From contig NZ_CALFHZ010000014.1 of NCBI RefSeq assembly GCF_937876535.1, forward strand, positions 1,343-65,342: a stretch of DNA of 64,000 bases, in the 5' to 3' direction. The notes below the pieces were generated by a model. The model searched no databases. It was not told the origin of the DNA and saw nothing but the letters and a program-made list of their open reading frames with translations. Source of the stretch: an uncultured Thiothrix sp. (GTDB lineage Bacteria > Pseudomonadota > Gammaproteobacteria > Thiotrichales > Thiotrichaceae). The first letter of the stretch is position 1, and the number at the start of each line of letters is the position of its first letter. A program made the position numbers and the translations under genes. Of this stretch, positions 3,930 through 47,647 are shown in pieces.

Positions 3930-4990
3930 TGGCTAGCAGTTCCTTGTTGGCGTTTTTTGTCATTCGCTAAATATTGGTTCACTGCTTTACGGTGCGCTTC
4001 ATAAGTTTCAGAAAAGAAATGCCGCCCATCACCCGTACCAGTCGCCACAAAATATAAATAATTAGTCTTAGCCGGATGCATCACGGCATCAATAGCCGCT
4101 TTACTAGGGGTCGCTATTGGTGTGGGGGGTAAACCAGTACGGGTGTAAGTATTCCAAGGGGTATCGGTTTCTAGATCTTTTTTACGAATATTGCCATCAT
4201 ACGCATCGCCCATCCCATAGATAACCGCTGGATCAGTTTGTAGCAACATATTTCTTTCTAAACGCGTCAAGAACACACGCGCAATCATAGGACGCTCATC
4301 AGGCATGCCTGTTTCTTTTTCAACTAAGGATGCCAAAATGAGCGCTTGGTAAGGGGTTTTAATCAAAGGATGTGGTTCACGTTGCTCCCAGGCTTTCATT
4401 AAGTAGTCATACATGACTTGATAACTACGCTTAAGCACGTCTACATCCGTCGACCCACGTGGAAAATTGTAAGTATCTGGATAAAACCAACCCTCAGCGG
4501 ATTCACCACTAGCGCCCCCAAGCTTGGGCATTAAATTCTTATAGTCTTCAGCACTCAGTGTTTGTTTGATATTAGGATGAGTTTGTACTGCTTTAACTAA
4601 CTCTTTGAATGTATGCCCTTCAATAATGCCTAATTGATATTGCAAAGTTTTACCTGAAGCTAAACGTGCCAGAAGATCTCCAGTAGTCATGTTGGGCTCT
4701 AAGGCATATTCCCCTGCTTTTAACTTGGATGCTTGTTCAGTAAACCGTGCTTGCGCTAAAAATAAGTACTCCGCAGGAATTACACTGGTTTTAGGCAAAA
4801 TCTCCGCAGCAAGCAATTGCTGGGCGACTTGACGAATATTCGTACCCGCTTTGACCTCAAAGCTTGTAGGCTGATTACTAGGAAGCTGGATAGGCTGTTG
4901 AATAAATGCTTGGTACTGCTGATAAGCAAGGCCAGCTACTATTCCCACCAGAACGACTAAGAATAGAACGAGCTTTAAAAGAAACCGCAT
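3926..4990 (-). CDS. mltG: Endolytic murein transglycosylase MltG (YceG family)
   Basis: An N-terminal TM helix is followed by a YceG-like domain (IIEGHTF, ASLVEKET, LQTDPAVIYG). I prefer the start at 4990 (MRFLLK) over the ORF-track start at 5032, but this is uncertain. Confidence 0.85.
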   Translation of the reverse strand: MRFLLKLVLFLVVLVGIVAGLAYQQYQAFIQQPIQLPSNQPTSFEVKAGTNIRQVAQQLLAAEILPKTSVIPAEYLFLAQARFTEQASKLKAGEYALEPNMTTGDLLARLASGKTLQYQLGIIEGHTFKELVKAVQTHPNIKQTLSAEDYKNLMPKLGGASGESAEGWFYPDTYNFPRGSTDVDVLKRSYQVMYDYLMKAWEQREPHPLIKTPYQALILASLVEKETGMPDERPMIARVFLTRLERNMLLQTDPAVIYGMGDAYDGNIRKKDLETDTPWNTYTRTGLPPTPIATPSKAAIDAVMHPAKTNYLYFVATGTGDGRHFFSETYEAHRKAVNQYLANDKKRQQGTASQ

Positions 4991-5125
4991 GAACAACTCT
5001 CGAAAGGATTGGGCAGAATTAACATAGAACAAAGCCTATGAATTGCCAAGAAAAAGCTTATGAATATTAGTTATTTTAATGCAGAGAAGTAAGCTAAACT
5101 CAGCTTACTTCTTAATTCAAAGCGT

Positions 5126-6370
5126 TTAAATCTTCTTAAAGATCAAGGTGCCGTTAGTACCACCAAAGCCAAAAGAGTTGCTCATAGCTATATTAACAAC
5201 TGTTTCACGCGCAACATTAGGCACGTAATCGAGATCACATTCTGGATCTTGTTGCTGTAAGTTGATGGTTGGAGGGAGTACTTGCTCATAAAGAGCCATA
5301 GCACTAAATACAGCCTCAATGCCACCGGCCGCCCCCAATAGATGACCAGTCATGGATTTAGTAGAGCTGACTGCTGTTTTATACGCATGATCGCCTAACG
5401 CTAGTTTAACCGCGAAGGTCTCAGCCTTATCACCCGCCGGTGTAGAAGTTCCATGTGCGTTGATATAGTCGATTTGATCAGGATTTAAACCAGCATCACG
5501 CATGGCATTGCGCATACAACGTGCAGCACCCTCACCACCTTCGGAAGGCGAAGTCATGTGATAAGCATCACTGCTCATACCATAACCGACTAATTCACAA
5601 TAAATTCTCGCACCACGGGCTTTGGCATGTTCATATTCTTCTAAGACTAAGACACCCGCACCATCACCTAGTACGAAACCATCACGATCAACATCCCAAG
5701 GACGACTTGCAGCTTCAGGATCATCATTACGAGTGGATAAAGCACGTGCAGCAGCAAAGCCGCCAATACCTAAAGGCGTAGAACCCATTTCAGCACCGCC
5801 AGCCACCATGACATCTGCATCACCGTATACAATCATCCGGGCTGCGTCACCAATACTATGGGTCGCGGTTGCGCAAGCAGAAACAATCGACATATTGGGT
5901 CCTTTTAAGCCATACATGATCGAGAGATTGCCAGCTACCATATTAATAATACTAGCGGGAACAAAGAACGGAGAGATTTTCCGCGCGCCCCCATTTAGAA
6001 AAGCGTTATAGTTGCGCTCAATCGTTTGCAAACCACCAATTCCAGAGCCCATCAAGACACCAATGCGCTCAGCATTCGCTTCTGTGACTTCTAGCCCTGA
6101 GTCACGAATTGCATCGACGCCAGCACCAATGCCATAGTGGATAAAGGTATCCATCTTCTTTTGGTCTTTAGGTTTAATATAATCATCAACATTAAAACCT
6201 TTGACATTCCCTGCAATTCGCACACTAAACTCGCTAGCATCGAATAGTTCAGGACTGATGGTATTGATACCGCTTTTACCCGCCTTAATATTGCCCCATG
6301 CACTTTCTAGGGTAGAACCTACAGGAGAGACAATACCTAGACCAGTTACTACTACACGCCTTTTAGACAA
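5126..6370 (-). CDS. fabF: Beta-ketoacyl-ACP synthase II
   Basis: Full-length KAS II with active-site ACATATH, HGTSTP and GHLLGAAG. Confidence 0.95.
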
Positions 6371-18168: not shown

Positions 18169-21100
18169 CTAGACCTTTACCTCAGCTTGAACTACTGTTT
18201 TTGAGGACTCTTCTTGAATTTTTTCAGGGAAGATTTTCTTCACCACCAAGAAGAATAAAGGTGCAAAAAAGATCCCTAAAATGGTAGCAGCCATCATACC
18301 CCCTAACACACCCGTACCAACTGCATGCCGACTTCCAGCCCCTGCTCCAGTGCTCAAAACCAACGGCAATACGCCTAAAATAAAAGCAAAAGAAGTCATG
18401 AGAATCGGACGCAAACGAATGCGTACCGCCTCCAAAGTAGCTGGAATTAAGGCATAGCCTTGTTTAAGCAGATTGCGTGCAAATTCGACAATCATAATTG
18501 CATTCTTAGCAGCTAAACCAATGGTGGTGAGTAAACCAACTTGGAAATACACATCATTATTTAAACCACGAATATCGGTGGCTAGTACCGCACCTAACAC
18601 CCCTAGTGGAACGACTAAAATCACTGCAAACGGAATCGACCAGCTTTCGTATAAGGCTGCGAGTGCTAAAAACACCACTAAGACGGATAAAGCATAGAGC
18701 AAAGGAGCCTGAGCACCTGATTTAGCCTCCTGATAAGATAAGCCAGTCCACTCATAACCAATCCCTTCCGGTAATTTACCGACTAGATCAGCCACAATCT
18801 GCATAGCAGTGCCGGAACTGATGCCATCCGCAGGTGCACCATTCACCTCTACCGAACTCACGCCATTAAAACGTTCTAAGAGGGGTGGCCCCTTGGTCCA
18901 ACTGCCTTTTGAGAAACTCGAAAACGGCACCATATCGCCCGCTGTATTTTTAACGAACCAACGATCTAAATCTTCCGGCATCATCCGGCTAGTCGCTTCA
19001 CCTTGCAGATAGACTTTCTTAACTCGCCCACGATCAATAAAATTGCTCACATACGAGCCACCCCAAGCGGTTGAAAGGGTATCATTGATCGTATTGATGG
19101 AAATCCCCATTGCACTCGCTTGAAGCACATCAATATCGACTTGATATTGGCTACTGTCGTCCATGCCATTCGCCCTTACCGCCGTTAAACGTGGATCTTG
19201 CGAAGTAGCTTTGATGAACTCATCCCGTGCTTTCATTAAAGCCTCATGGCCTAAACCCGCACGATCTTGAATCTCGACCGAAAAACCTGCGGAATTCCCC
19301 AAACCGCGCACGGCAGGTGGAGCATTTACCACTACCCGCGCCTCTTGAATGGCACGCAACTTACCAGAAGCACGTTTGGCAATCGCTTGTGCGGTCTGAT
19401 CCGGCCGCTTACGCTGATCCCAATCGACTAAGCGCACAAATAAGCGCGCCACATTTTGCGCATTCCCTGCGGTACCAACTCCACCCACTGCCATCACCGC
19501 ACTGAGAGTTTCTTTTTCATTCTCTAAAAAATACTTTTCGACTTTAGCAACCACCTTTAAAGTGTTTTCTTGCGTCGCTCCAGCAGGTAAACGTACTTGG
19601 ACAAATAAAGTGCCTTGGTCTTCATCCGGTAAGAAAGAAGTCGGTAAACGCACAAATAAATAGCTCATCAGCCCAATAATTAGAAAATACACCAGCACAT
19701 AACGTGTTGGCTTATTGAGCATTCCACCAACCATTGCTTGATAGCGCTGACTAGAACGATTGAAACCTCGATTAAACCAACCAGCCCAGCCTGTTTTATC
19801 TTTTACATCGCTCGCTTTTAGAAGGCTGGCACATAAAGCGGGCGTCAGAATGAGTGCTACCCCCACCGACAGAGTAATCGCCGAAACCAAGGTAATAGAG
19901 AACTGTCGATAGATCACGCCAGTTGAGCCACCAAAGAAAGCCATCGGCACAAATACTGCAGCCAAAACTAAGGCAATCCCAATCAGAGCGCCAGTGATTT
20001 GCCGCATGGATTTACGCGTCGCTTCGCGGGGCGATAACCCTTCGTCATGCATTAAGCGTTCGACGTTCTCCACTACCACAATTGCATCATCTACCAACAG
20101 ACCAATCGCCAAGACCATTGCAAACATGGTGAGGGTATTAATCGAATAACCAAACATATTCAAAATGGCCAAAGTGCCCAGTAAAACAATCGGCACGGTA
20201 ATTGCTGGAATTAAAGTCGCGCGGAAGCTTTGTAAGAACACAAACATGACGATAAAAACTAAGACCATCGCCTCAGCCAAAGTCACTAATACGCCTTCAA
20301 TTGAGATTTTAATAAAAGGCGAGGCATCATAGGTAATGATGGCAGTAAGACCTTTTGGGAAATAAGCCTCTAATTCTTTCAGTTTGTCTTTAACGGCTTC
20401 TGCGGTAGTTAAAGCATTCGCACCACTGGCTAAAGTAACAGATAAACCACCTGAAGGTTTGCCACCAATCCGTGATACCACATCATAGCTTTCACTCCCA
20501 AGCTCTACACGGGCAATATCTGCTAAGCGCACTACCCCACCGGTGGAATTAGCCTTTACCGTAATCGCATTAAATTGCTCAGGGGTTTGTAGCGTAGATT
20601 GAGCGGTGACTGTGACATTGAGGGGTTGATTCGGTACGGCTGGCGTACCACCAAGCTGCCCTGCTGAAACTTGCGTATTCTGCGACTGAATAGCGTTTTT
20701 TACTTCAGTCGTGGTGATTTTATACGTACTCATTTTCAGTGGATCGAGCCAAATCCGCATCGCATAAGGTGAGCCGAAAATTTGCGTACTACCGACCCCT
20801 TCCACACGGCTAAGAGGGTCTTGAATATTAGTGGCAATATAATCAGCAATATCGGTCTGGCTCATACTGCCATCTTCAGAGATAAAGCCAATAATCTGCA
20901 AGAAGCCACTCGAACTCTTACTCACTCGTGTACCTTGTTGCTGTACCGCAGCCGGTAACTGCGGGAGCGCTAGCTGGAGCTTATTTTGCACTTCAACCTG
21001 AGCTAAATCAGGATCGGTATCCGCAGAAAAGCTCAAATCAACCCTAGAGCTACCTGCCGAGCTACTCGTGGAAGCAATATATTGCAAACCATCTAAGCCA

Positions 21101-21318
21101 GTCATTTTCTGCTCAATGATTTGTGTCACCGAATCCTCGACGGTCTTAGCAGAAGCACCAGGGTAAGAGGCAGAGACAGAAATCGTGGGTGGAGCAATAT
21201 CGGGATATTGTGCAATCGGAAGTTTGGAGATAGATAAAACACCCGCTAACATCACTATAATAGCAATGACCCAAGCGAATATCGGTCGGTCAATAAAAAA
21301 TAAGGACATGCTCGCCAT
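18169..21318 (-). CDS. RND efflux permease, AcrB/MexB (HAE1) type
   Basis: 1049 aa with the canonical N-terminus FFIDRPIFAWVIAI and 12-TM topology. No adaptor or outer-membrane factor gene is adjacent. Confidence 0.95.
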   Translation of the reverse strand: MASMSLFFIDRPIFAWVIAIIVMLAGVLSISKLPIAQYPDIAPPTISVSASYPGASAKTVEDSVTQIIEQKMTGLDGLQYIASTSSSAGSSRVDLSFSADTDPDLAQVEVQNKLQLALPQLPAAVQQQGTRVSKSSSGFLQIIGFISEDGSMSQTDIADYIATNIQDPLSRVEGVGSTQIFGSPYAMRIWLDPLKMSTYKITTTEVKNAIQSQNTQVSAGQLGGTPAVPNQPLNVTVTAQSTLQTPEQFNAITVKANSTGGVVRLADIARVELGSESYDVVSRIGGKPSGGLSVTLASGANALTTAEAVKDKLKELEAYFPKGLTAIITYDASPFIKISIEGVLVTLAEAMVLVFIVMFVFLQSFRATLIPAITVPIVLLGTLAILNMFGYSINTLTMFAMVLAIGLLVDDAIVVVENVERLMHDEGLSPREATRKSMRQITGALIGIALVLAAVFVPMAFFGGSTGVIYRQFSITLVSAITLSVGVALILTPALCASLLKASDVKDKTGWAGWFNRGFNRSSQRYQAMVGGMLNKPTRYVLVYFLIIGLMSYLFVRLPTSFLPDEDQGTLFVQVRLPAGATQENTLKVVAKVEKYFLENEKETLSAVMAVGGVGTAGNAQNVARLFVRLVDWDQRKRPDQTAQAIAKRASGKLRAIQEARVVVNAPPAVRGLGNSAGFSVEIQDRAGLGHEALMKARDEFIKATSQDPRLTAVRANGMDDSSQYQVDIDVLQASAMGISINTINDTLSTAWGGSYVSNFIDRGRVKKVYLQGEATSRMMPEDLDRWFVKNTAGDMVPFSSFSKGSWTKGPPLLERFNGVSSVEVNGAPADGISSGTAMQIVADLVGKLPEGIGYEWTGLSYQEAKSGAQAPLLYALSVLVVFLALAALYESWSIPFAVILVVPLGVLGAVLATDIRGLNNDVYFQVGLLTTIGLAAKNAIMIVEFARNLLKQGYALIPATLEAVRIRLRPILMTSFAFILGVLPLVLSTGAGAGSRHAVGTGVLGGMMAATILGIFFAPLFFLVVKKIFPEKIQEESSKTVVQAEVKV

Positions 21319-24294: not shown

Positions 24295-24327
24295 GAAAAC
24301 TGGCTAGTAACCTGTTGTTACTAGCCA
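24295..24327 (-). terminator. Terminator-like hairpin after the repeat-protein gene
   Basis: TGGCTAGTAAC, a 5-nt loop, GTTACTAGCCA (perfect 11-bp stem), followed on the minus strand by GTTTTC. Confidence 0.55.
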
Positions 24328-24351
24328 ATGTCTACTAGATCGATTTAAAAA

Positions 24352-25305
24352 TTAATCGAGCGGCATCATTTCAGCGGGAACAATATCACAGAGAATTTCA
24401 AATTTAATCTCTGGACGAATTTCCCATTTAGTTTCACCTTTAACCTCGTGCTTAATTTCAGGCTTGATCTCTGGCTTCACTTCCTTAATTACTTCATATT
24501 TAATTTCTGCCTTGATCTCGTGCTTAATTTCAGGTTTCACTTCAAGCACAACTTCGTACATTATTTCCTGTTTAACCTCTGGGCGAATATCACAAACCAC
24601 TTCTGGTCTGACTTCTGGTTTCACCTCAGGTTTAACTTCTGGCTTAACTTCAATAATGATTTCGGGTTTAATTTCTGGTTTTACTTCAGGACGTACTTCG
24701 GGTTTAACCTCTGGCTTAATCTCAACAATAATCTCTGGCTTGATTTCCGGTTTTACTTCAGGACGTACTTCGGGCTTAACCTCAGGCTTAATCTCAACAA
24801 TAATCTCTGGCTTGATTTCCGGTTTTACTTCAGGACATACGTCAGGATTTACTTCAGGCCTAATCTCAGGTTGAACTTCAATGATAATTTCGGGCTTGAT
24901 CTCCGGTTTTACCTCGGGTTTAACCTCCGGCTTAATCTCAACAATAATCTCTGGCTTGATTTCCGGTTTTACTTCAGGCTTAACCTCGGGTTTGACTTCC
25001 GGACGAATATCACAAGCAACTTCCGGTTTAATCTCTGGGCGAATTTCACAACCACCTTTGCCAGAACCTCCTGTGCCCTTCCCAGAGCCATCGGTAGAAC
25101 CACCCTTACCAGAGCCGCTGTTATCGCCGCATAAGGAAGACAAGAGTTGTTGTAAGATATTGAAAAACTGTGGTAATTGCCCACCAAGATTGAAGCAATT
25201 CAAACTACTAGAGAATTGACTGGCGCCACTTGCACTGGCAGATAAACTCGAATTTTGGGAAGCGTAGGAGCTTCCAACATTATTATTGCTTATTCTGTTA
25301 ATCAT
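24352..25305 (-). CDS. Repeat protein: a Ser/Asn/Gly-rich N-terminus followed by about 58 consecutive [KRIV]-[PIV]-E-[VI] tetrads (PEVK-like)
   Basis: GGAG lies 4 nt upstream of the ATG and a hairpin lies downstream. The non-repetitive N-terminal 85 aa exists only in this frame. Glu occupies every fourth residue through most of the ~230-aa repeat region (Asp or other residues substitute at a few positions). Cys is interspersed (CEIRPE, ACDIRPE, VCPEVK, VCDIRPE, LCDIVP). Confidence 0.7.
   Translation of the reverse strand: MINRISNNNVGSSYASQNSSLSASASGASQFSSSLNCFNLGGQLPQFFNILQQLLSSLCGDNSGSGKGGSTDGSGKGTGGSGKGGCEIRPEIKPEVACDIRPEVKPEVKPEVKPEIKPEIIVEIKPEVKPEVKPEIKPEIIIEVQPEIRPEVNPDVCPEVKPEIKPEIIVEIKPEVKPEVRPEVKPEIKPEIIVEIKPEVKPEVRPEVKPEIKPEIIIEVKPEVKPEVKPEVRPEVVCDIRPEVKQEIMYEVVLEVKPEIKHEIKAEIKYEVIKEVKPEIKPEIKHEVKGETKWEIRPEIKFEILCDIVPAEMMPLD
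24355..25050 (-). repeat. 12-nt periodic coding tandem repeat with a higher-order 72-nt unit
   Basis: 72-nt units start at 24689, 24761 and 24833 and are near-identical. The module CTCAACAATAATCTCTGGCTTGATTTCCGGTTTTAC recurs at least three times. Confidence 0.85.
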
Positions 25306-25641
25306 AAAAACTCCGTGGTATTAAGCTACCTTTATTCACGATTTGAGTAACTGAGCTTTCATTTAGGGCAACTCAGCTTGTGTAGGATTTGCTGTTTAAT
25401 GGCCATCCTTGAAATAAGATTTATTTCAGCACAGGCTCAAGCAAAACTGGTAAGTTTCACGCCAAGAGGTAGCTTGCAAGCAGACATATGGCGGTTCACA
25501 GAGAAATACTTAGCTTATCAAGCAGTTGCCCATAAAAACCTCAGCACGAGCTACTTATCTGTATTTATCAGGCGTACATTGCTCTATGTGCGGTTTGTGC
25601 ATACTATTCTGTCTAGTCTCTAATCAAACAGGATAATCATA

Positions 25642-29500: not shown

Positions 29501-30469
29501 TTAACTGATTTTAAACCGCACTGGCAATTGCACAATGGAAGGAATTGTTTTGCCATCACGTTGTGCAGGCAGAAATGCCCAACTGCGCACTGCTTTAAGT
29601 GCAGCTGCGTCTAAGCTTGCATTACCGGAAGATTGATGCACCAGGGCAGCCATAATCCTACCTTCAGCACTAATAGTCACACGAACGAGTACCGTACCTT
29701 CAATCCCTGCCTCCAAGGCGCGTCGTGGGTATTCAGGGGGCGAAGGCGGATTGCGATAGCGTGGGTTACTAATCAAAGGCATAGCACTACTGGAGTTATG
29801 GGCAGCTTGTGCTAGCACTGGCTTAGACTGTACAGCCGCCGTATGTGCAAATTTTTCCTGCTGCTCTGCTTTGGCTTTAGTTTCTGCTTGTCGTTTTTTG
29901 GCTGCCTCGCGTTGTTGAGCTTGTCCCCATTCAGCACGACGTTTGGCTTGTTCTTGTTGCTTCTGCTGTGCTAATCGCTGGCGCTCTTGCTCTTGTTGCT
30001 GTTTCTCAACAAATTCATGCTGACGTTGTTCACGCAAAGCAGCAAGGCGTTGTCTTTCCTGTTCTTGTTGCTGCAGTAAGGCAGGATCAGGTTCGGGCTT
30101 GGGTAAAGGTTGCTCCACAGCAGTTTTCAGCTCTGGTGGTGGTTCCGGTTTGTTTTCCTCTACTGGTTTGGGAGCAGCTTTCGGTGGCTTGACTGGTTTT
30201 TCTTTTTTAGGCGGTGGTGGTTCGAACGTTGGCTCTGCAACGATAGGCTCAGGCGGTGGTGGCTCTGAAGTAATAGGTGTTTCAGCCACAGGTTCTGGAA
30301 TAACTACAGGCGGTGGCGGTGGTGGCTCAAAAGTACTCAACTCTAATAAAATAGGTTCTGGTTCTGCTGGTTTTTGCTCATTAGCCCATAATAGAGGTAA
30401 TAAAACGAGCGCTAAACCTGTATGCAGCACCGTTGATACGATAAACCCAGTCATTTGATTAGCTTTCAT
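29501..30469 (-). CDS. tonB: TonB energy transducer
   Basis: It has an N-terminal anchor, a Pro-rich spacer (PPPPPVVIPEP, PKP repeats) and a C-terminal TonB domain (YP..A...GIEGTVLV). It is coupled to exbD. Confidence 0.9.
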   Translation of the reverse strand: MKANQMTGFIVSTVLHTGLALVLLPLLWANEQKPAEPEPILLELSTFEPPPPPPVVIPEPVAETPITSEPPPPEPIVAEPTFEPPPPKKEKPVKPPKAAPKPVEENKPEPPPELKTAVEQPLPKPEPDPALLQQQEQERQRLAALREQRQHEFVEKQQQEQERQRLAQQKQQEQAKRRAEWGQAQQREAAKKRQAETKAKAEQQEKFAHTAAVQSKPVLAQAAHNSSSAMPLISNPRYRNPPSPPEYPRRALEAGIEGTVLVRVTISAEGRIMAALVHQSSGNASLDAAALKAVRSWAFLPAQRDGKTIPSIVQLPVRFKIS

Positions 30470-40135: not shown

Positions 40136-40510
40136 ATGAAATTCTGGACCGGTGTCATCACTGATAAAGTGCAAGAATCAAAAAGTTTTTATGTAGACTT
40201 ATTTGGCTGTGAAATCTTATATGAAGACGAGGGGGGCTGGTTTGTACTCTTGGGTTTAGCTGAGAGTGAGTTAGGTTTTATGCAACCAGAACTGACTACT
40301 CAAGCCCCGATTTTTCGTGCCGCCTTTCAGGGGCAAGGCATGTGGATTGCCATTGATGTAGTAGATGCAGAGGCTGAATATGCCCGCCTAACAGCATTAG
40401 GTGCGCCGATTGAAGTGGCATTGCGCGAAGAGCCTTGGGGCGATCGTCATTTTGTCCTACGCGACCCGAATGGGATTGGGGTTGATGTAGTGCAGCGGGT
40501 TGCTGCTTAA
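40136..40510 (+). CDS. VOC (glyoxalase/bleomycin-resistance) family protein
   Basis: 124 aa with a single paired beta-alpha-beta-beta-beta module pattern and PWGDRHFVLRDPNG. Confidence 0.75.
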   Translation: MKFWTGVITDKVQESKSFYVDLFGCEILYEDEGGWFVLLGLAESELGFMQPELTTQAPIFRAAFQGQGMWIAIDVVDAEAEYARLTALGAPIEVALREEPWGDRHFVLRDPNGIGVDVVQRVAA

Positions 40511-42222
40511 AGACAATAAACTAATAAACCGATAATGAGGAGCAACTCCAACCCCGCTAACCATTTCCAAAACTTCAAAGGATTACGTTCTAGTAGCGGG
40601 CGTTGGCGTTGATTAGCCAGTAAGCCCTCATTCGGGCGGGTTAAATCGGCAATAAACTCGGACAACACCTCATAACGCTTATCGGGATTCGGCTGAGTGG
40701 CTTTTTCCAAGGCCGCATCCACCCATTCCGGCACTTTGGGGTTATGCCAAGCGGCAGGCGTGTAATTAAATTTATGCTTGCTGGCCTTTTCCGGTTCAAT
40801 TTCGCCAAAGGGCAATTGTTCGGTCAGCATTTCGTAGGCAATCACGCCCAAGGAAAAAATATCCGAGCGATTGGTACCGCGTGCGCCCTGAAAATATTCA
40901 GGTGCGGAATAACTCGCCGTGCCGACAATATGGTTATGCTGCAACACGGTTTGCACCTCCATTAAACCCGCTATGCATGTCGAACCAAAGTCGATGATTT
41001 TTAAAGTATTATGCTGATCAATCAACACATTATCCGGCTTTAAATCCTGATGAATCATCTCCAAGCGATGCATAGCCCGCAAACCCCGCGCCATCTGATC
41101 CACCGTCGCCCGCACCTGTGCAATGCTGGGGTCGGGATGATCGAGCATCCATTGGCGTAAGGTCTGCCCTGCCACATATTCAACCACACTATACAAGCAA
41201 GTACGTGCCCGAGCATCGCGGGTTTGCAGCTTAATCAAATGCGGCGAATTAAGGCGTTGTGCTACCCATTCTTCATGCAAAAACAGGTCAATATAAGCCA
41301 GATCATCATTAAAATTTTGCGAAGGGGTTTTCAGTACTACTTGCTGATTTTGGTTGAACGTGTCTTCGGCTAAATAAACTTGGCTGCGAGACGTGGCGTT
41401 CAATTCGCGTAGAATTTTATAGCCATCTAGCACCTGCCCCGCTTTTAAATCGGGCGGAAACGGTAATTGGCTGAGCTGCTGATAAAACAACTCACGATTC
41501 ACCTCCGGTAAGGAGTCAATGCGCACAATTTGGCAGGTAATATTATCTTGGCTATTGGCTTCTAGTGCGGCTTGGACAATCTGCTCGGCGCAAGTTTGTA
41601 GATCAGGATAAGCAGTTAATTGTTGTGCTAAAGCGCTATCACTCAATACATCATGCACCCCATCGGTGGTGAGCACGAACACATCGCCTTGGCTCAATTC
41701 GAGGGTGCGAAAATCAATTTCTAAATGCGGCTCAATCCCCAAGGCGCGGGCTAAATAACTTTGTTGATTTTTAAATGGAATACGGTGATCGGTGGTCAGA
41801 CACTCCAGAGCGCCCTTTTGCCAGCGGTAAATGCGACTATCACCAATATGCAACACATAAGCGCTGTGGGATTTTAAAATCAAGGCGCTAAAGGTGGTGG
41901 CGAGGCTGCCTGTTTCGCCGTATTGGCGTTGACCTTGGCTATAGAGCCAGAGATTTAACGCACTTAAAACTTTTTGTGCGGCGTGTTTCACCGTCCACGA
42001 ATCGGGCGTGCTGGCGTAATCCTCTAGAAATTGCCGAACCGCGACTTCGCTGGCTTGTTTGCCGCCTGTACTGGCGCTCACGCCATCAGCAATAGCAAGA
42101 GCCATACCCTTGCTATCTAAACTTACACCCGACGGTAGCCAAGCACTGTAAAAATCCTCATTGACCGATTTCACACCTGCGATTGAGGCTTGTCCGAGAC
42201 TGACCGTGAGGGTGGCTTTCAA
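40507..42222 (-). CDS. Bifunctional PP2C phosphatase / Ser-Thr protein kinase with a C-terminal TM anchor
   Basis: PP2C motifs are NEDF, IADGVS, TTDGVHD and SQDNITC. Kinase motifs are VVLKTP, HQDLKPDNVLI and IIDFGS. The hydrophobic tail is LLLIIGLLVYCL. The TTG start lies 1 nt after the narK stop. Confidence 0.85.
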   Translation of the reverse strand: MKATLTVSLGQASIAGVKSVNEDFYSAWLPSGVSLDSKGMALAIADGVSASTGGKQASEVAVRQFLEDYASTPDSWTVKHAAQKVLSALNLWLYSQGQRQYGETGSLATTFSALILKSHSAYVLHIGDSRIYRWQKGALECLTTDHRIPFKNQQSYLARALGIEPHLEIDFRTLELSQGDVFVLTTDGVHDVLSDSALAQQLTAYPDLQTCAEQIVQAALEANSQDNITCQIVRIDSLPEVNRELFYQQLSQLPFPPDLKAGQVLDGYKILRELNATSRSQVYLAEDTFNQNQQVVLKTPSQNFNDDLAYIDLFLHEEWVAQRLNSPHLIKLQTRDARARTCLYSVVEYVAGQTLRQWMLDHPDPSIAQVRATVDQMARGLRAMHRLEMIHQDLKPDNVLIDQHNTLKIIDFGSTCIAGLMEVQTVLQHNHIVGTASYSAPEYFQGARGTNRSDIFSLGVIAYEMLTEQLPFGEIEPEKASKHKFNYTPAAWHNPKVPEWVDAALEKATQPNPDKRYEVLSEFIADLTRPNEGLLANQRQRPLLERNPLKFWKWLAGLELLLIIGLLVYCL

Positions 42223-45423: not shown

Positions 45424-45514
45424 TTTTTTGAAATAACTATCTTGCTATTTGAAACCTCAGATCAATTACAGTTTCATTTTTAGTTTTTACCTCTGGAAGC
45501 AAGAGATATCGTTT

Positions 45515-45523
45515 TGGTATAAT
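45515..45523 (+). promoter_or_regulatory. Candidate extended -10 promoter (TGgTATAAT) for the OLD-family gene
   Basis: TGGTATAAT lies 31 nt upstream of the ATG at 45554. There is no good -35. Confidence 0.35.
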
Positions 45524-45553
45524 TTTTATCAAACCCCAAAGGATAAAAGTATC

Positions 45554-47647
45554 ATGACTACTAAGCTCTTGCGTTTTAAAGTAGAAAATTTTCGCTCGGT
45601 AGAGAACTCGTGTTGGATAGAAATATCTGATGTTAATTGCTTGGTAGGAACAAACGAGTCTGGTAAAACAAATTTACTATTGGCTCTTTGGAAAATGAAG
45701 CCTGCTAATAAAGAGCTAATCACCCCCTTAGAGGATTATCCGAGAAAAAAATATGCTGACTACAAAGATACCTTAGGAGATGAGATTTTTATAACATGTG
45801 AGTTTGAGTTATCACACTCCACAACACATAAACTAGAAAAGCTAACAGGCTGGAATCAGAGCTTTTTTAAAAAGATGCTTTTAGCGAGATCTTATAAAGG
45901 CAGCTATAGCTATAACTATTTAAGCGATTCAGCTCCATCCTTTTCAAAGGAAAAACTAATTTCTTTATTAGATAGCATTGATGAAAAGGAATCTGAGGAA
46001 GAAGATAGTTTGACATCTGTTAGAGCTACTCTAGCCAGTTACCATGATTATCTGAATGAAAAAGACTTAAGCGCAATATATAATAATTTAAAGGAAAAAT
46101 TCGATGAAGGTGAAATAAGTAAAATAATCAATCCTCTATTAAAAACAATTGATAAAAAATATATAAGTCTAGACAAAGAAACTTTTTTTGCATTATACCA
46201 AGCTCTCCCAACTTTTGTTTACTACTCTGACTACGGAAATTTAGATTCCGAGATATACTTACCCCATGTCATAAAAAACTTTGAACGTACTGATTTAGGA
46301 GAAAAAGAGCGGTCAAAAGCTCGAAGCTTAAAAGTACTCTTTGAATTTGTTAATTTATCCCCAGAAGAAATTCTGGAGTTAGGCAAAGAAGCGTTACCTA
46401 TTAGAGTTATTACGAATACTGTTTACCATCATAATCAAACTCAAAAAACCTCAGAGACGCTGGAGGAACCACAAGAAGATGATATCGAAACTGTAAAAGC
46501 TAATAAAAAAGAGCGTGAGGTACTTTTACAATCAGCATCCACAAAGCTAACTAGCAAATTTAAAGAGTGGTGGAAACAGGGAAATTATCGCTTTAGATTT
46601 CAAGCTGATGGTAATCACTTTAGAATCTGGGTTAGTGATGAAATCCGTACTGAAGAAGTAGAGTTAGAAGGAAGAAGTCGTGGTTTACAATGGTTTTTTA
46701 GCTTCTTTCTTGTATTTTTAGTAGAAAGCAAAGATAGTCATGAAAATTGCATTTTACTCTTAGATGAACCAGGAATATCTTTACATCCTATTGCACAAAG
46801 CGATTTATTAACATTTTTCCAATCATTATCCGAGAGTAACCAACTTATTTATACTACCCACTCACCATTTCTAGTTGATTCGGATAATCTAGGCGATGTT
46901 CATGCAGTGTACGTCAGTAAAGAGGGTAAAACACTAGTCTCATCTGATCTCAGGGCTAACAAAGCCATTGCTGAAAAGTCTATCTATCCAATTCATGCGG
47001 CAATTGGACTAACTGTTTCTGAAACTATGTTAATAGGTTGTCAGCCAGTTTTAGTAGAAGGTCCTTCAGATCAAATTTACTTTTCTCTAATTAAACTTTA
47101 TATGATCAAAAACGGTTTTTATAAAAATAGTAAGGAGCTGGTTTTTATTCCAACTGGTGGAATTAGAGGTATGTCGCCTATCATTAGTATTTTAAGTGGG
47201 CGCGAAAATGACCTACCTTTTGTTATATTAGATTCCGATAAGTCAGGAAAAGACAAGTATAACAATCTAAAAGGTGATTTGTATGCGGACTCTCAGAAAA
47301 AGCTCATTGCAGTTGACAAATACTTAAATGCAGGTAATTGGGAAATTGAGGATTTAATGCCCACTGCTGAGTTAGCACGACTATTTTCTAGAACATATCG
47401 TATGAAAGAAACAGAAGATGAGTTTGAGGATATTTTTGACTCTAAGCTTCCTATACTTCCCCAAATGGAAAAATATGCTCAAGACAATCAATATGCTCTA
47501 GCTCAAGGCTGGAAAGTTGAATTAGCAAAAGATCTTCGTAGTAGCTTTAAAAAGCTTTCTGATAAAGGAATTGATGACAATATAGTAAAAATTTGGCGAG
47601 CAATATTTGATCAGCTCACCGGCAATCAACCAAGCAATCTAACCTAA
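45554..47647 (+). CDS. OLD-family nuclease: ABC-type ATPase fused to a C-terminal TOPRIM domain
   Basis: The Walker A is GTNESGKTN, the signature-like segment is RSRGLQWFFSFFLVF, the Walker B is ILLLDEPGISLHP and the H-loop is YTTHSPF. The TOPRIM domain has VLVEGPSDQ and ILDSDKSG. I chose the ATG at 45554 (AAAGGA RBS); the upstream TTG extension looks non-coding. Confidence 0.85.
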   Translation: MTTKLLRFKVENFRSVENSCWIEISDVNCLVGTNESGKTNLLLALWKMKPANKELITPLEDYPRKKYADYKDTLGDEIFITCEFELSHSTTHKLEKLTGWNQSFFKKMLLARSYKGSYSYNYLSDSAPSFSKEKLISLLDSIDEKESEEEDSLTSVRATLASYHDYLNEKDLSAIYNNLKEKFDEGEISKIINPLLKTIDKKYISLDKETFFALYQALPTFVYYSDYGNLDSEIYLPHVIKNFERTDLGEKERSKARSLKVLFEFVNLSPEEILELGKEALPIRVITNTVYHHNQTQKTSETLEEPQEDDIETVKANKKEREVLLQSASTKLTSKFKEWWKQGNYRFRFQADGNHFRIWVSDEIRTEEVELEGRSRGLQWFFSFFLVFLVESKDSHENCILLLDEPGISLHPIAQSDLLTFFQSLSESNQLIYTTHSPFLVDSDNLGDVHAVYVSKEGKTLVSSDLRANKAIAEKSIYPIHAAIGLTVSETMLIGCQPVLVEGPSDQIYFSLIKLYMIKNGFYKNSKELVFIPTGGIRGMSPIISILSGRENDLPFVILDSDKSGKDKYNNLKGDLYADSQKKLIAVDKYLNAGNWEIEDLMPTAELARLFSRTYRMKETEDEFEDIFDSKLPILPQMEKYAQDNQYALAQGWKVELAKDLRSSFKKLSDKGIDDNIVKIWRAIFDQLTGNQPSNLT

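Follow-up and report, generated by a model that had tools for sequence, protein, structure and literature searches.

What purpose is served by a bacterial protein in which one four-residue motif is repeated dozens of times? The question is raised by a 64,000-nucleotide (nt) stretch of DNA from an uncultured Thiothrix sp. (contig NZ_CALFHZ010000014.1; hereafter the window), which encodes a 317-amino-acid (aa) protein consisting largely of tandem tetrads. A preliminary description of this DNA had proposed a surface or matrix protein or a cation-binding one. The decisive feature, missed in that description, is the conserved pairing of the repeat gene with a downstream gene for a 961-aa enzyme combining orotate phosphoribosyltransferase (OPRT)-like, AMMECR1 and toroid domains. 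Judged from sequence, the repeat protein and this OPRT-AMMECR1-toroid enzyme are a widespread, undescribed gene cassette. Within it, the repeat protein appears to be neither a surface protein nor an elastic one but a precursor or substrate, with many target sites, for a modification system resembling those of ribosomally synthesized and post-translationally modified peptides (RiPPs); the probability of this reading is put at about one half. It is favored because the repeat travels with the enzyme across phyla, only a five-residue unit is fixed within it, the protein is predicted to be unstructured and has no export signal, and a RiPP-type maturase is present outside the Thiothrix clade.

The pairing is evident first among close relatives. 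The 961-aa partner matches proteins of Thiothrix, Thiolinea and Thiotrichaceae metagenome-assembled genomes at 59–86% identity, and a repeat open reading frame (ORF) lies directly upstream of its gene in all six loci of this clade that include upstream sequence (the window, L002, L004, L005, L006 and L092). The outer neighbors vary, with a major facilitator superfamily transporter, a glycosyltransferase or an MscS channel upstream and a resistance-nodulation-division (RND) pump or a cbb3 oxidase downstream. Because these flanks differ, the conserved unit is the two-gene pair. In the window, L001 and L004, the enzyme gene is followed by the RND pump gene, which was rejected as a member of the cassette because a cbb3 oxidase takes its place in L003, L005 and L092. 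The orthologous repeat proteins (289 aa in L002, 348 in L004, 238 in L005, 287 in L006 and 323 in L092) share a common design: a head beginning MIN..., a helix (...LLQLLxSL...), a Gly-rich linker and PE[VI][KR] tetrads. In the two more distant of them (L005:5203-5919 and L092:4947-5918), Gly/His-rich (GHGHGGH...) and Cys-rich (...GGSRC end) stretches flank the array, and ECRPEV tetrads recur; both these tetrads and the flanking stretches are absent from the window protein.

Beyond the sulfur bacteria, the enzyme belongs to a large family. One search gave 827 matches at E<=1e-10, most of them in soil Acidobacteriota (Pyrinomonadaceae, Blastocatellia) and others in Omnitrophota, and a full search with a hidden Markov model gave 594 clusters of 50% identity at E<=1e-30. 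Four of four distant genomes have, on the flanks of the enzyme gene, a gene for a ~615-aa B12-binding radical S-adenosylmethionine (SAM) protein and a small ORF with no Pfam match. These four small ORFs are repeats as well (RPEIRPEI..., IVEIAPE..., VITEVAPGT... and PITEVAPET...). A single pattern-based scan of metagenomes, dominated by soil Acidobacteriota, added 80 loci. The radical SAM gene adjoins the enzyme gene in all 72 of these loci with at least 400 nt of upstream sequence, and a repeat ORF is present in 36 of the 38 with at least 2.6 kb upstream, located before the radical SAM gene in 32 and after the enzyme gene in 4; the two loci without one end ~330 nt past the enzyme gene. The radical SAM proteins score 515–549 bits against TIGR03975, "RiPP maturation radical SAM C-methyltransferase" (cut-off 282). 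The window has tandem E-[V/I]-x-P units next to a co-directional OPRT-AMMECR1-toroid gene, and more than 45 other loci are alike in this respect; repeat proteins linked to the enzyme in this way are proposed as a new family.

Across 1,031 sites in 48 proteins, the unit held in common is P-E-[V/I]-x-P-[E/D]. Relative to the Glu at position 0, Pro occupies position -1 in 74–76% and position +3 in 73–87%, with Val or Ile at +1 and Glu or Asp at +4; the residue at +2 is Lys, Arg or Ile in the window clade and Ala, Arg or Lys elsewhere. Repeat subtypes (PEh[KR]P, PEhAP, TEhAP, VEhAP, VEhSP) go with particular clades of the enzyme, and E-h-x-P is fixed throughout. Cys is absent from the repeat regions of the homologues in other phyla and occurs only in apparently over-extended N-termini; the ORF calls made for this analysis sometimes start too far upstream (e.g., L017 and L077). 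One acidobacterial clade has two further genes in the same operon, one for a prolyl-hydroxylase-like 2-oxoglutarate (2OG) oxygenase (23 loci) and one for a carbamoyltransferase (16 loci). The oxygenase, of the prolyl-4-hydroxylase-like 2OG-Fe(II) type, is encoded directly upstream of the repeat gene and in the same orientation at L007:1-1992 and 23 other loci (e.g., L053:1711-2310), and its gene is often preceded by that of the carbamoyltransferase, which is of the NodU/CmcH type. A different Pro/Glu/Lys repeat ORF, made of KEPAKAT heptads, follows a divergent enzyme member at L097:3250-3552 (plus strand; the contig ends within it), and the link between enzyme and repeat may extend beyond the E-[V/I]-x-P motif.

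The AMMECR1 domain of the enzyme is ancient and occurs in archaea, eukaryotes (including humans) and some bacteria; OPRT-like domains normally make ribonucleotides from small heterocycles. Pfam and NCBIfam recognize AMMECR1 and an orotate-phosphoribosyltransferase-like region in the partner, and sequence matches in the PDB agree. An AlphaFold model built with 24 homologues (mean predicted local distance difference test, pLDDT, 85; predicted template modeling score, pTM, 0.83) was compared with known structures using Foldseek: the N-terminus matches OPRT and APRT structures, the middle matches the AMMECR1 structures 1zq7, 1vaj and 1wsc, and the C-terminus matches (alpha/alpha)6 toroids, including squalene-hopene cyclase (8pak), GH76 (4v1s) and AprG (9lfq). 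Three sets of catalytic residues are invariant in the 24 homologues: D126-D127-S128...S130-S131-G132 of the phosphoribosyl pyrophosphate (PRPP) loop (VIIIDDSVSSG); R100, K104, G107 and S108 of the OPRT flexible loop (RKERKPHG); and G468-C469-x-G471 and D491-x-R493-F494 of AMMECR1. The prediction that AMMECR1 is an enzyme dates from 2007, and its Cys and DxRF motifs constitute the active site proposed by Balaji and Aravind (PMC2034487). A literature search returned no substrate or reaction for it. That its PRPP-binding and AMMECR1 motifs are intact suggests that the partner is a true catalyst. A role for the toroid as a LanC-like enzyme or prenyltransferase acting on Cys was not adopted because Cys is absent from repeat regions outside the clade; moreover, the fold matches are to generic (alpha/alpha)6 toroids.

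Such a substrate must first be a protein, and a tandem repeat of this kind might instead be a non-coding satellite or an assembly artefact, or the true gene might be the antisense ORF at 24448-25134 on the plus strand. The repeat does leave long ORFs open on the opposite strand, and a public gene caller chose an antisense ORF in L092 and L097. However, codon-position entropy over the 58 tetrads fits the minus-strand frame only: third positions carry 1.4–1.9 bits, compared with 0.13 and 0.22 bits at Glu codon positions 1 and 2 and 0.25 bits at Val/Ile codon position 2, and all four Pro codons are in use in the array (CCA 12, CCT 11, CCG 7, CCC 7). That third positions are free while Glu and Val/Ile are fixed indicates selection on the protein. 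The identical 317-aa protein is present on five public contigs, independent of one another, and the start codon, ribosome-binding site and head are all conserved. The preliminary description had named an ORF frameshifted in close relatives as a sign of a satellite; every orthologue stays in frame despite changes in length. By these measures the minus-strand ORF is a real gene, separately translated, and the non-gene alternatives, already very improbable, are essentially refuted. Gene callers thus sometimes take the antisense frame, and repeat genes of the P-E-[V/I]-x-P kind have probably been overlooked or wrongly annotated in databases.

The protein has two parts (Table 1). The head, which is confined to the sulfur-bacterium clade among the homologues compared, contains 20 Ser, 17 Gly and 9 Asn in its 85 residues, in agreement with the Ser/Asn/Gly-rich composition reported earlier; its helix is the sole secondary-structure element predicted by AlphaFold (pLDDT ~61). 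From residue 85 onward, 58 tetrads follow in one register with zero indels, which upholds the strict period of four. Position 1 is mostly Lys (33), Arg (8) or Ile (6), position 2 Pro (37), Cys (4) or Val (3), position 3 Glu (52) or Asp (4), and position 4 Ile (28) or Val (27). Pro-free tetrads (IVEI/IIEV) had been said to recur about every 24 residues, and their spacings are 20, 28, 24 and 24. Five Cys residues are indeed in the repeat part, but the regular spacing claimed for them does not hold: Cys is found at residues 37, 59, 86, 98, 157, 238 and 306, of which the last five belong to the array. Four of these five are in a C-[D/E]-I-[R/V] context that is conserved in close orthologues. The AlphaFold model made from the single sequence predicts coil and is too poor to use (pLDDT 38).

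The array also records its own history. Tandem Repeats Finder, which the preliminary description had recommended, returned a 12-nt period together with a 72-nt period (5.2 copies, 76% matches), the latter corresponding to a 24-aa unit, KPEVKPEIKPEIIVEIKPEVKPEV. The claim that the 72-nt units are nearly identical stands for three of the five, which share 66–69 of 72 nt (92–96% identity), but not for the others, which share 43–59 of 72 and differ mostly by synonymous changes. The three near-identical units and the mostly synonymous divergence elsewhere indicate that part of the array was recently duplicated and that the rest is older and selected for its protein sequence, in keeping with the recent expansion suggested earlier. 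The predicted length polymorphism is seen directly, since the near-identical lineages L005 and L092 encode 238 and 323 aa.

Export of the protein by a classical route is not indicated. No hydrophobic segment was found anywhere in it (maximum Kyte–Doolittle mean over 15 aa, 1.2; 0.42 in the first 45 residues, from windows starting at residues 1–30), and it has no anchor domain for surface attachment by Pfam. Homologues begin MKDKSK... and likewise lack a hydrophobic region. The preliminary description was correct that the head has no signal peptide; neither a signal peptide nor an anchor was found in the window protein or ~45 homologues, and the obligate neighbors are enzymes of cytoplasmic type. 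The surface or matrix role that it proposed thus has little support. Its cation-binding proposal also has little support and is weakly motivated, as charges strictly alternate and are nearly balanced (42 Lys and Arg vs. 58 Asp and Glu), making the protein a polyampholyte.

The window differs from the distant loci in one respect. In tblastn searches, no radical SAM gene was found in the 64-kb window or in L001–L006, and no Memo gene was found in the window or related loci. Among the best 120 database matches to the radical SAM enzyme of the nearest outgroup, none is labelled Thiothrix or Thiolinea. That outgroup is 51% identical and has the order repeat ORF, enzyme, radical SAM gene; the tail of its repeat ORF reads ...EVYPEVIAEVKPDWKDEGSIDD. 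From this order it follows that the sulfur-bacterium clade lost or moved the radical SAM gene. The sulfur-bacterium cassette would then be a natural deletion that keeps the repeat–enzyme pair and has gained the head and Cys-containing tetrads. As the radical SAM gene was lost or moved and the pair kept, the primary partner of the repeat protein is probably the OPRT-AMMECR1-toroid enzyme.

From gene context and motif conservation, we infer the following substrate role, modified residue and product. The repeat protein would be cytoplasmic and largely unfolded, displaying ~58 copies of P-E-[V/I]-x-P on which the four-domain partner enzyme would act repeatedly, with the invariant Glu-Val/Ile pair as the likely target. 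In other phyla, the TIGR03975 B12 radical SAM enzyme is also a member of the cassette, whereas the cassette of Thiothrix and Thiolinea appears to be reduced to the repeat protein and the AMMECR1 enzyme, the former extended by an N-terminal head that includes an amphipathic helix. The hairpin following the repeat gene probably yields an excess of substrate over enzyme, as in many RiPP operons. The end product may be a decorated polymer or, after cleavage, many small peptides. A more specific proposal is that the repeats are modified many times per chain by an undescribed pathway with a PRPP-using OPRT-like domain and AMMECR1 at its core, the two-gene cassette being its natural minimal version; this is offered tentatively, as a possibility less probable than the general substrate role.

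Several considerations weigh against the substrate reading. Adjacency indicates a functional link and does not give the direction of action between the partners. To our knowledge, no reaction or function is known for AMMECR1, and we know of no OPRT-type enzyme that acts on proteins. Proteins of 110–450 aa with no recognizable leader, protease or exporter are atypical of RiPP precursors, and the analogy to RiPPs is weakest in the window and its related loci, where radical SAM and Memo genes are missing. Furthermore, the likeness of the low-complexity repeat proteins across phyla could be partly convergent; their kinship is supported mainly by the shared neighbor.

An unmodified structural protein would account for some of the same features. 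Here the repeat would be an extended polyampholyte serving as an entropic spring or spacer or assembling with itself, with titin PEVK and EAK16/RADA16-like self-assembly as models, and the enzyme would be linked for some other reason, such as co-regulation or its own scaffolding. The strict period of four, in which positive, hydrophobic, negative and hydrophobic residues take turns (K-P-E-V), places charges on one face and Pro, Val and Ile on the other, AlphaFold predicts coil, PEVK-type linkers are common in bacterial proteins (SLH proteins, SpoIIIAH), and the conserved head helix could mediate oligomerization. However, a spring or spacer leaves unexplained why, across phyla and at more than 45 loci, a repeat ORF is paired with an OPRT-AMMECR1 enzyme, why a RiPP-type radical SAM gene is present in 72 of 72 and why E-[V/I]-x-P stays fixed amid drift elsewhere, and any surface role would have to do without a signal peptide or anchor. 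Such a role is considered unlikely, although it is the strongest of the alternatives. The Glu ladder, the Cys residues and the Gly-His stretches of L005 and L092 could instead point to a metal- or cation-binding or redox protein; 58 acidic residues, conserved C-D-I-R motifs at both ends of the array and the His/Gly-rich and Cys-rich ends in those two loci fit this idea, which nonetheless is improbable given the nearly balanced charges (42 basic, 58 acidic), the absence of Cys from repeat regions in other phyla and its silence on the enzyme partner.

A sub-variant of the substrate reading holds that the protein is a multi-copy precursor cut into small peptides or molecules, much as the precursors of cyanobactins or fungal dikaritins are. 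Each E-[V/I]-x-P unit would give one product, with cleavage perhaps following Pro, and the enzymes would build a small and possibly nucleotide-like metabolite on each unit. It draws on the up to 58 near-identical Pro-flanked units, on the Lys/Arg runs between units in some clades (L009, L073, L080), on the ribonucleotides that OPRT-like domains normally yield and on the carbamoyltransferase and oxygenase of some clusters. Yet the cassette has no conserved protease or exporter and the window tetrads have no spacer between them, and this variant is judged rather improbable. Among all of these explanations, that of a multi-site substrate best accommodates the tie to the enzyme across phyla, the fixed unit and the RiPP-type neighbor together.

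Several signals lie around the gene (Table 1). The preliminary description had given the repeat gene its own ribosome-binding site, and the Shine–Dalgarno sequence bears this out; over its final ~45 nt, the 5' leader hardly varies in the two closest orthologues. Farther upstream, the sigma-54-like element TGGC-N9-GCA, for which chance predicts ~0.1 matches per 330 nt, is kept at the same position in L002 and L004 and absent from L005, L092 and L006. A promoter scan gave matches only inside the repeat and at chance rate. As for the terminator-like hairpin reported 3' of the stop codon, the hairpin itself is well founded (-21.4 kcal/mol, z = -3.3 by RNA folding), but only 3–4 U residues follow it, and a terminator scan did not call it. 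A strong hairpin of other sequence occurs at the same spot in L002, L004, L005 and L006, so that all five loci folded, including the window, have one.

Table 1. Features of the repeat gene, its partner and related loci (window positions unless a locus or protein residues are named).
Feature	Position	Strand	Remarks
Repeat-protein gene	24352..25305	minus	ATG 25303-25305, stop 24352-24354; 317 aa; from ORF list, codon entropy and syntenic orthologues
Head, residues 1-85	25051..25305	minus	Ser/Asn-rich start, amphipathic helix, Gly-rich linker
Amphipathic helix, residues 44-58	25132-25176	minus	conserved; Q46, L54 and S57 invariant in 5 orthologues
Gly-rich linker	residues 60-85 of head		
Array of 58 tetrads x-P-E-[V/I]	24358..25053	minus	equivalent to E-[V/I]-x-P units; one register
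Five 72-nt (24-aa) higher-order units	24622..24981	minus	Tandem Repeats Finder and pairwise unit comparison
Shine–Dalgarno GGAG	25311..25314	minus	5 nt before ATG; invariant in window, L002 and L004
Sigma-54-like -24/-12 element TGGC-N9-GCA	25390..25405	minus	100 nt 5' of ATG; a lead only
13-bp stem-loop, then UUUU	24299..24329	minus	between repeat gene and enzyme gene
Antisense ORFs	24448-25134, 24464-24874, 24881-25219	plus	by-products of the repeat
Antisense call in L092	L092:5259-5894	minus	true repeat gene 4947-5918 (plus)
Antisense call in L097	L097:3258-3551		
Partner enzyme gene, 961 aa	21382..24267	minus	immediately downstream of repeat gene, co-directional
OPRT-like type I phosphoribosyltransferase domain	residues ~40-190 of partner		
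Degenerate AMMECR1-like domain	residues ~200-400 of partner		
AMMECR1 domain	residues ~420-600 of partner		GC(M)G and DxRF motifs
(alpha/alpha)6 toroid	residues ~620-961 of partner		
AcrB-type RND pump, full-length	18169-21318	minus	no membrane-fusion-protein gene adjoining

Elsewhere in the window, two genes stand out amid housekeeping and nitrate-assimilation genes. One (40507-42222, minus strand) encodes a fusion of a PP2C phosphatase with a Ser/Thr kinase, and the other (45449-47647, plus strand) a 732-aa AAA_15/AAA_21 ATPase, of an OLD/Abi-like family frequent in defence islands.

If the proposed modification takes place, the locus would give the AMMECR1 domain its first substrate and its first reaction. 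It would also define a new class of ribosomal product in which one chain offers dozens of sites for modification, an unusual RiPP-like class with very long, leaderless, tandem-core substrates. An AMMECR1 enzyme stands beside a candidate substrate with a simple, countable motif here and in several hundred related loci, which makes its function testable. As the sulfur-bacterium version has no radical SAM gene, the AMMECR1/OPRT step should be separable from the methylation step. The cassette is common in soil Acidobacteriota and also occurs in filamentous sulfur bacteria of wastewater systems.

The resources searched contain no counterpart of the system. Pfam, NCBIfam and PADLOC have no model for the repeat protein or for the fused enzyme as such, and NCBIfam has no family for the window repeat protein or four homologues, including the leader families NHLP (TIGR03793) and Nif11 (TIGR03798). 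Pfam PF05887 (Trypan_PARP) reached 31 bits over residues 64-139, against a 100-bit gathering cut-off, in a composition-driven match; this and a PADLOC "Specificity_I" match were rejected as low-complexity artefacts. The earlier statement that no characterized bacterial family with this repeat was known is sustained. A homology search with the whole protein gave composition-driven matches only (SLH proteins, SpoIIIAH, amidases and Drosophila proteins) and did not reveal the family. An identity as TonB was rejected, since the repeat protein has no Pfam TonB_C match and the TonB of this locus is a separate gene (29501-30469). A literature search found no description of the repeat/OPRT-AMMECR1 system, and its matches to the string KPEVKPEV were to a SUMO tag.

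Against known systems, the likeness is always partial. PEVK-type segments (titin PEVK, the KPEV linkers of Bacillus SLH and SpoIIIAH proteins, the Glu-Pro/Lys-Pro spacer of TonB and the EP repeats of trypanosome procyclin) are the sole database matches to the whole repeat protein and share its Pro/Glu/Val/Lys composition. However, they are linkers within proteins that have folded domains or signal peptides, whereas the window protein stands alone, with an exact period of four and a dedicated enzyme partner. Multi-core RiPP precursors, such as cyanobactin PatE, the fungal dikaritin/ustiloxin precursors and the plant lyciumins, similarly carry tandem copies of a short core in one ribosomal product; they come, however, with dedicated proteases and with a leader or recognition sequence, none of which is seen in the cassette.

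Proteusin-type pathways come nearer. In the polytheonamide pathway, the precursor PoyA is accompanied by PoyC, a TIGR03975 B12 radical SAM C-methyltransferase, and in loci outside the Thiotrichales the repeat ORF likewise shares an operon with a radical SAM gene whose product passes the TIGR03975 cut-off. The precursor-like gene also stands first, with a hairpin after it, and its many Val and Ile residues are candidate sites of C-methylation. On the other hand, the repeat proteins have no NHLP or Nif11 leader and consist of tandem units over 110–450 aa where a proteusin has one core, the OPRT-AMMECR1-toroid enzyme is unknown in RiPP pathways, and the window cassette has no radical SAM gene within 64 kb.

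The second near relative is the AmmeMemoRadiSam set, which comprises TIGR04335 (AMMECR1), TIGR04336 (Memo) and TIGR04337 (the radical SAM partner). Memo-AMMECR1 systems were described by Balaji and Aravind in 2007 (PMC2034487) and are mentioned in PMC7159879. The loci of other phyla resemble this set in linking a radical SAM gene to an AMMECR1 domain with conserved Cys and DxR-aromatic motifs. Moreover, a Memo-family gene (PF01875, L096:3317-4117) comes after the gene for one divergent member of the fused enzyme family (L096; profile score 599 bits), which ties the family to Memo-AMMECR1 systems. Nevertheless, the partner scores 79 bits against the TIGR04335 cut-off of 99, the window has no Memo, the radical SAM enzyme of the cassette is of the B12 RiPP type and not a MiaB-like activase, and AMMECR1 shares a single chain with OPRT and toroid domains in the partner. 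AmmeMemoRadiSam systems also lack a candidate protein substrate, which the cassette has. While the locus failed the defining tests of both proteusin-type and AmmeMemoRadiSam systems, these are the closest described systems. As a putative ribosomal substrate plus maturases with unusual features, the repeat/OPRT-AMMECR1 locus has real potential to make the function of AMMECR1 testable.

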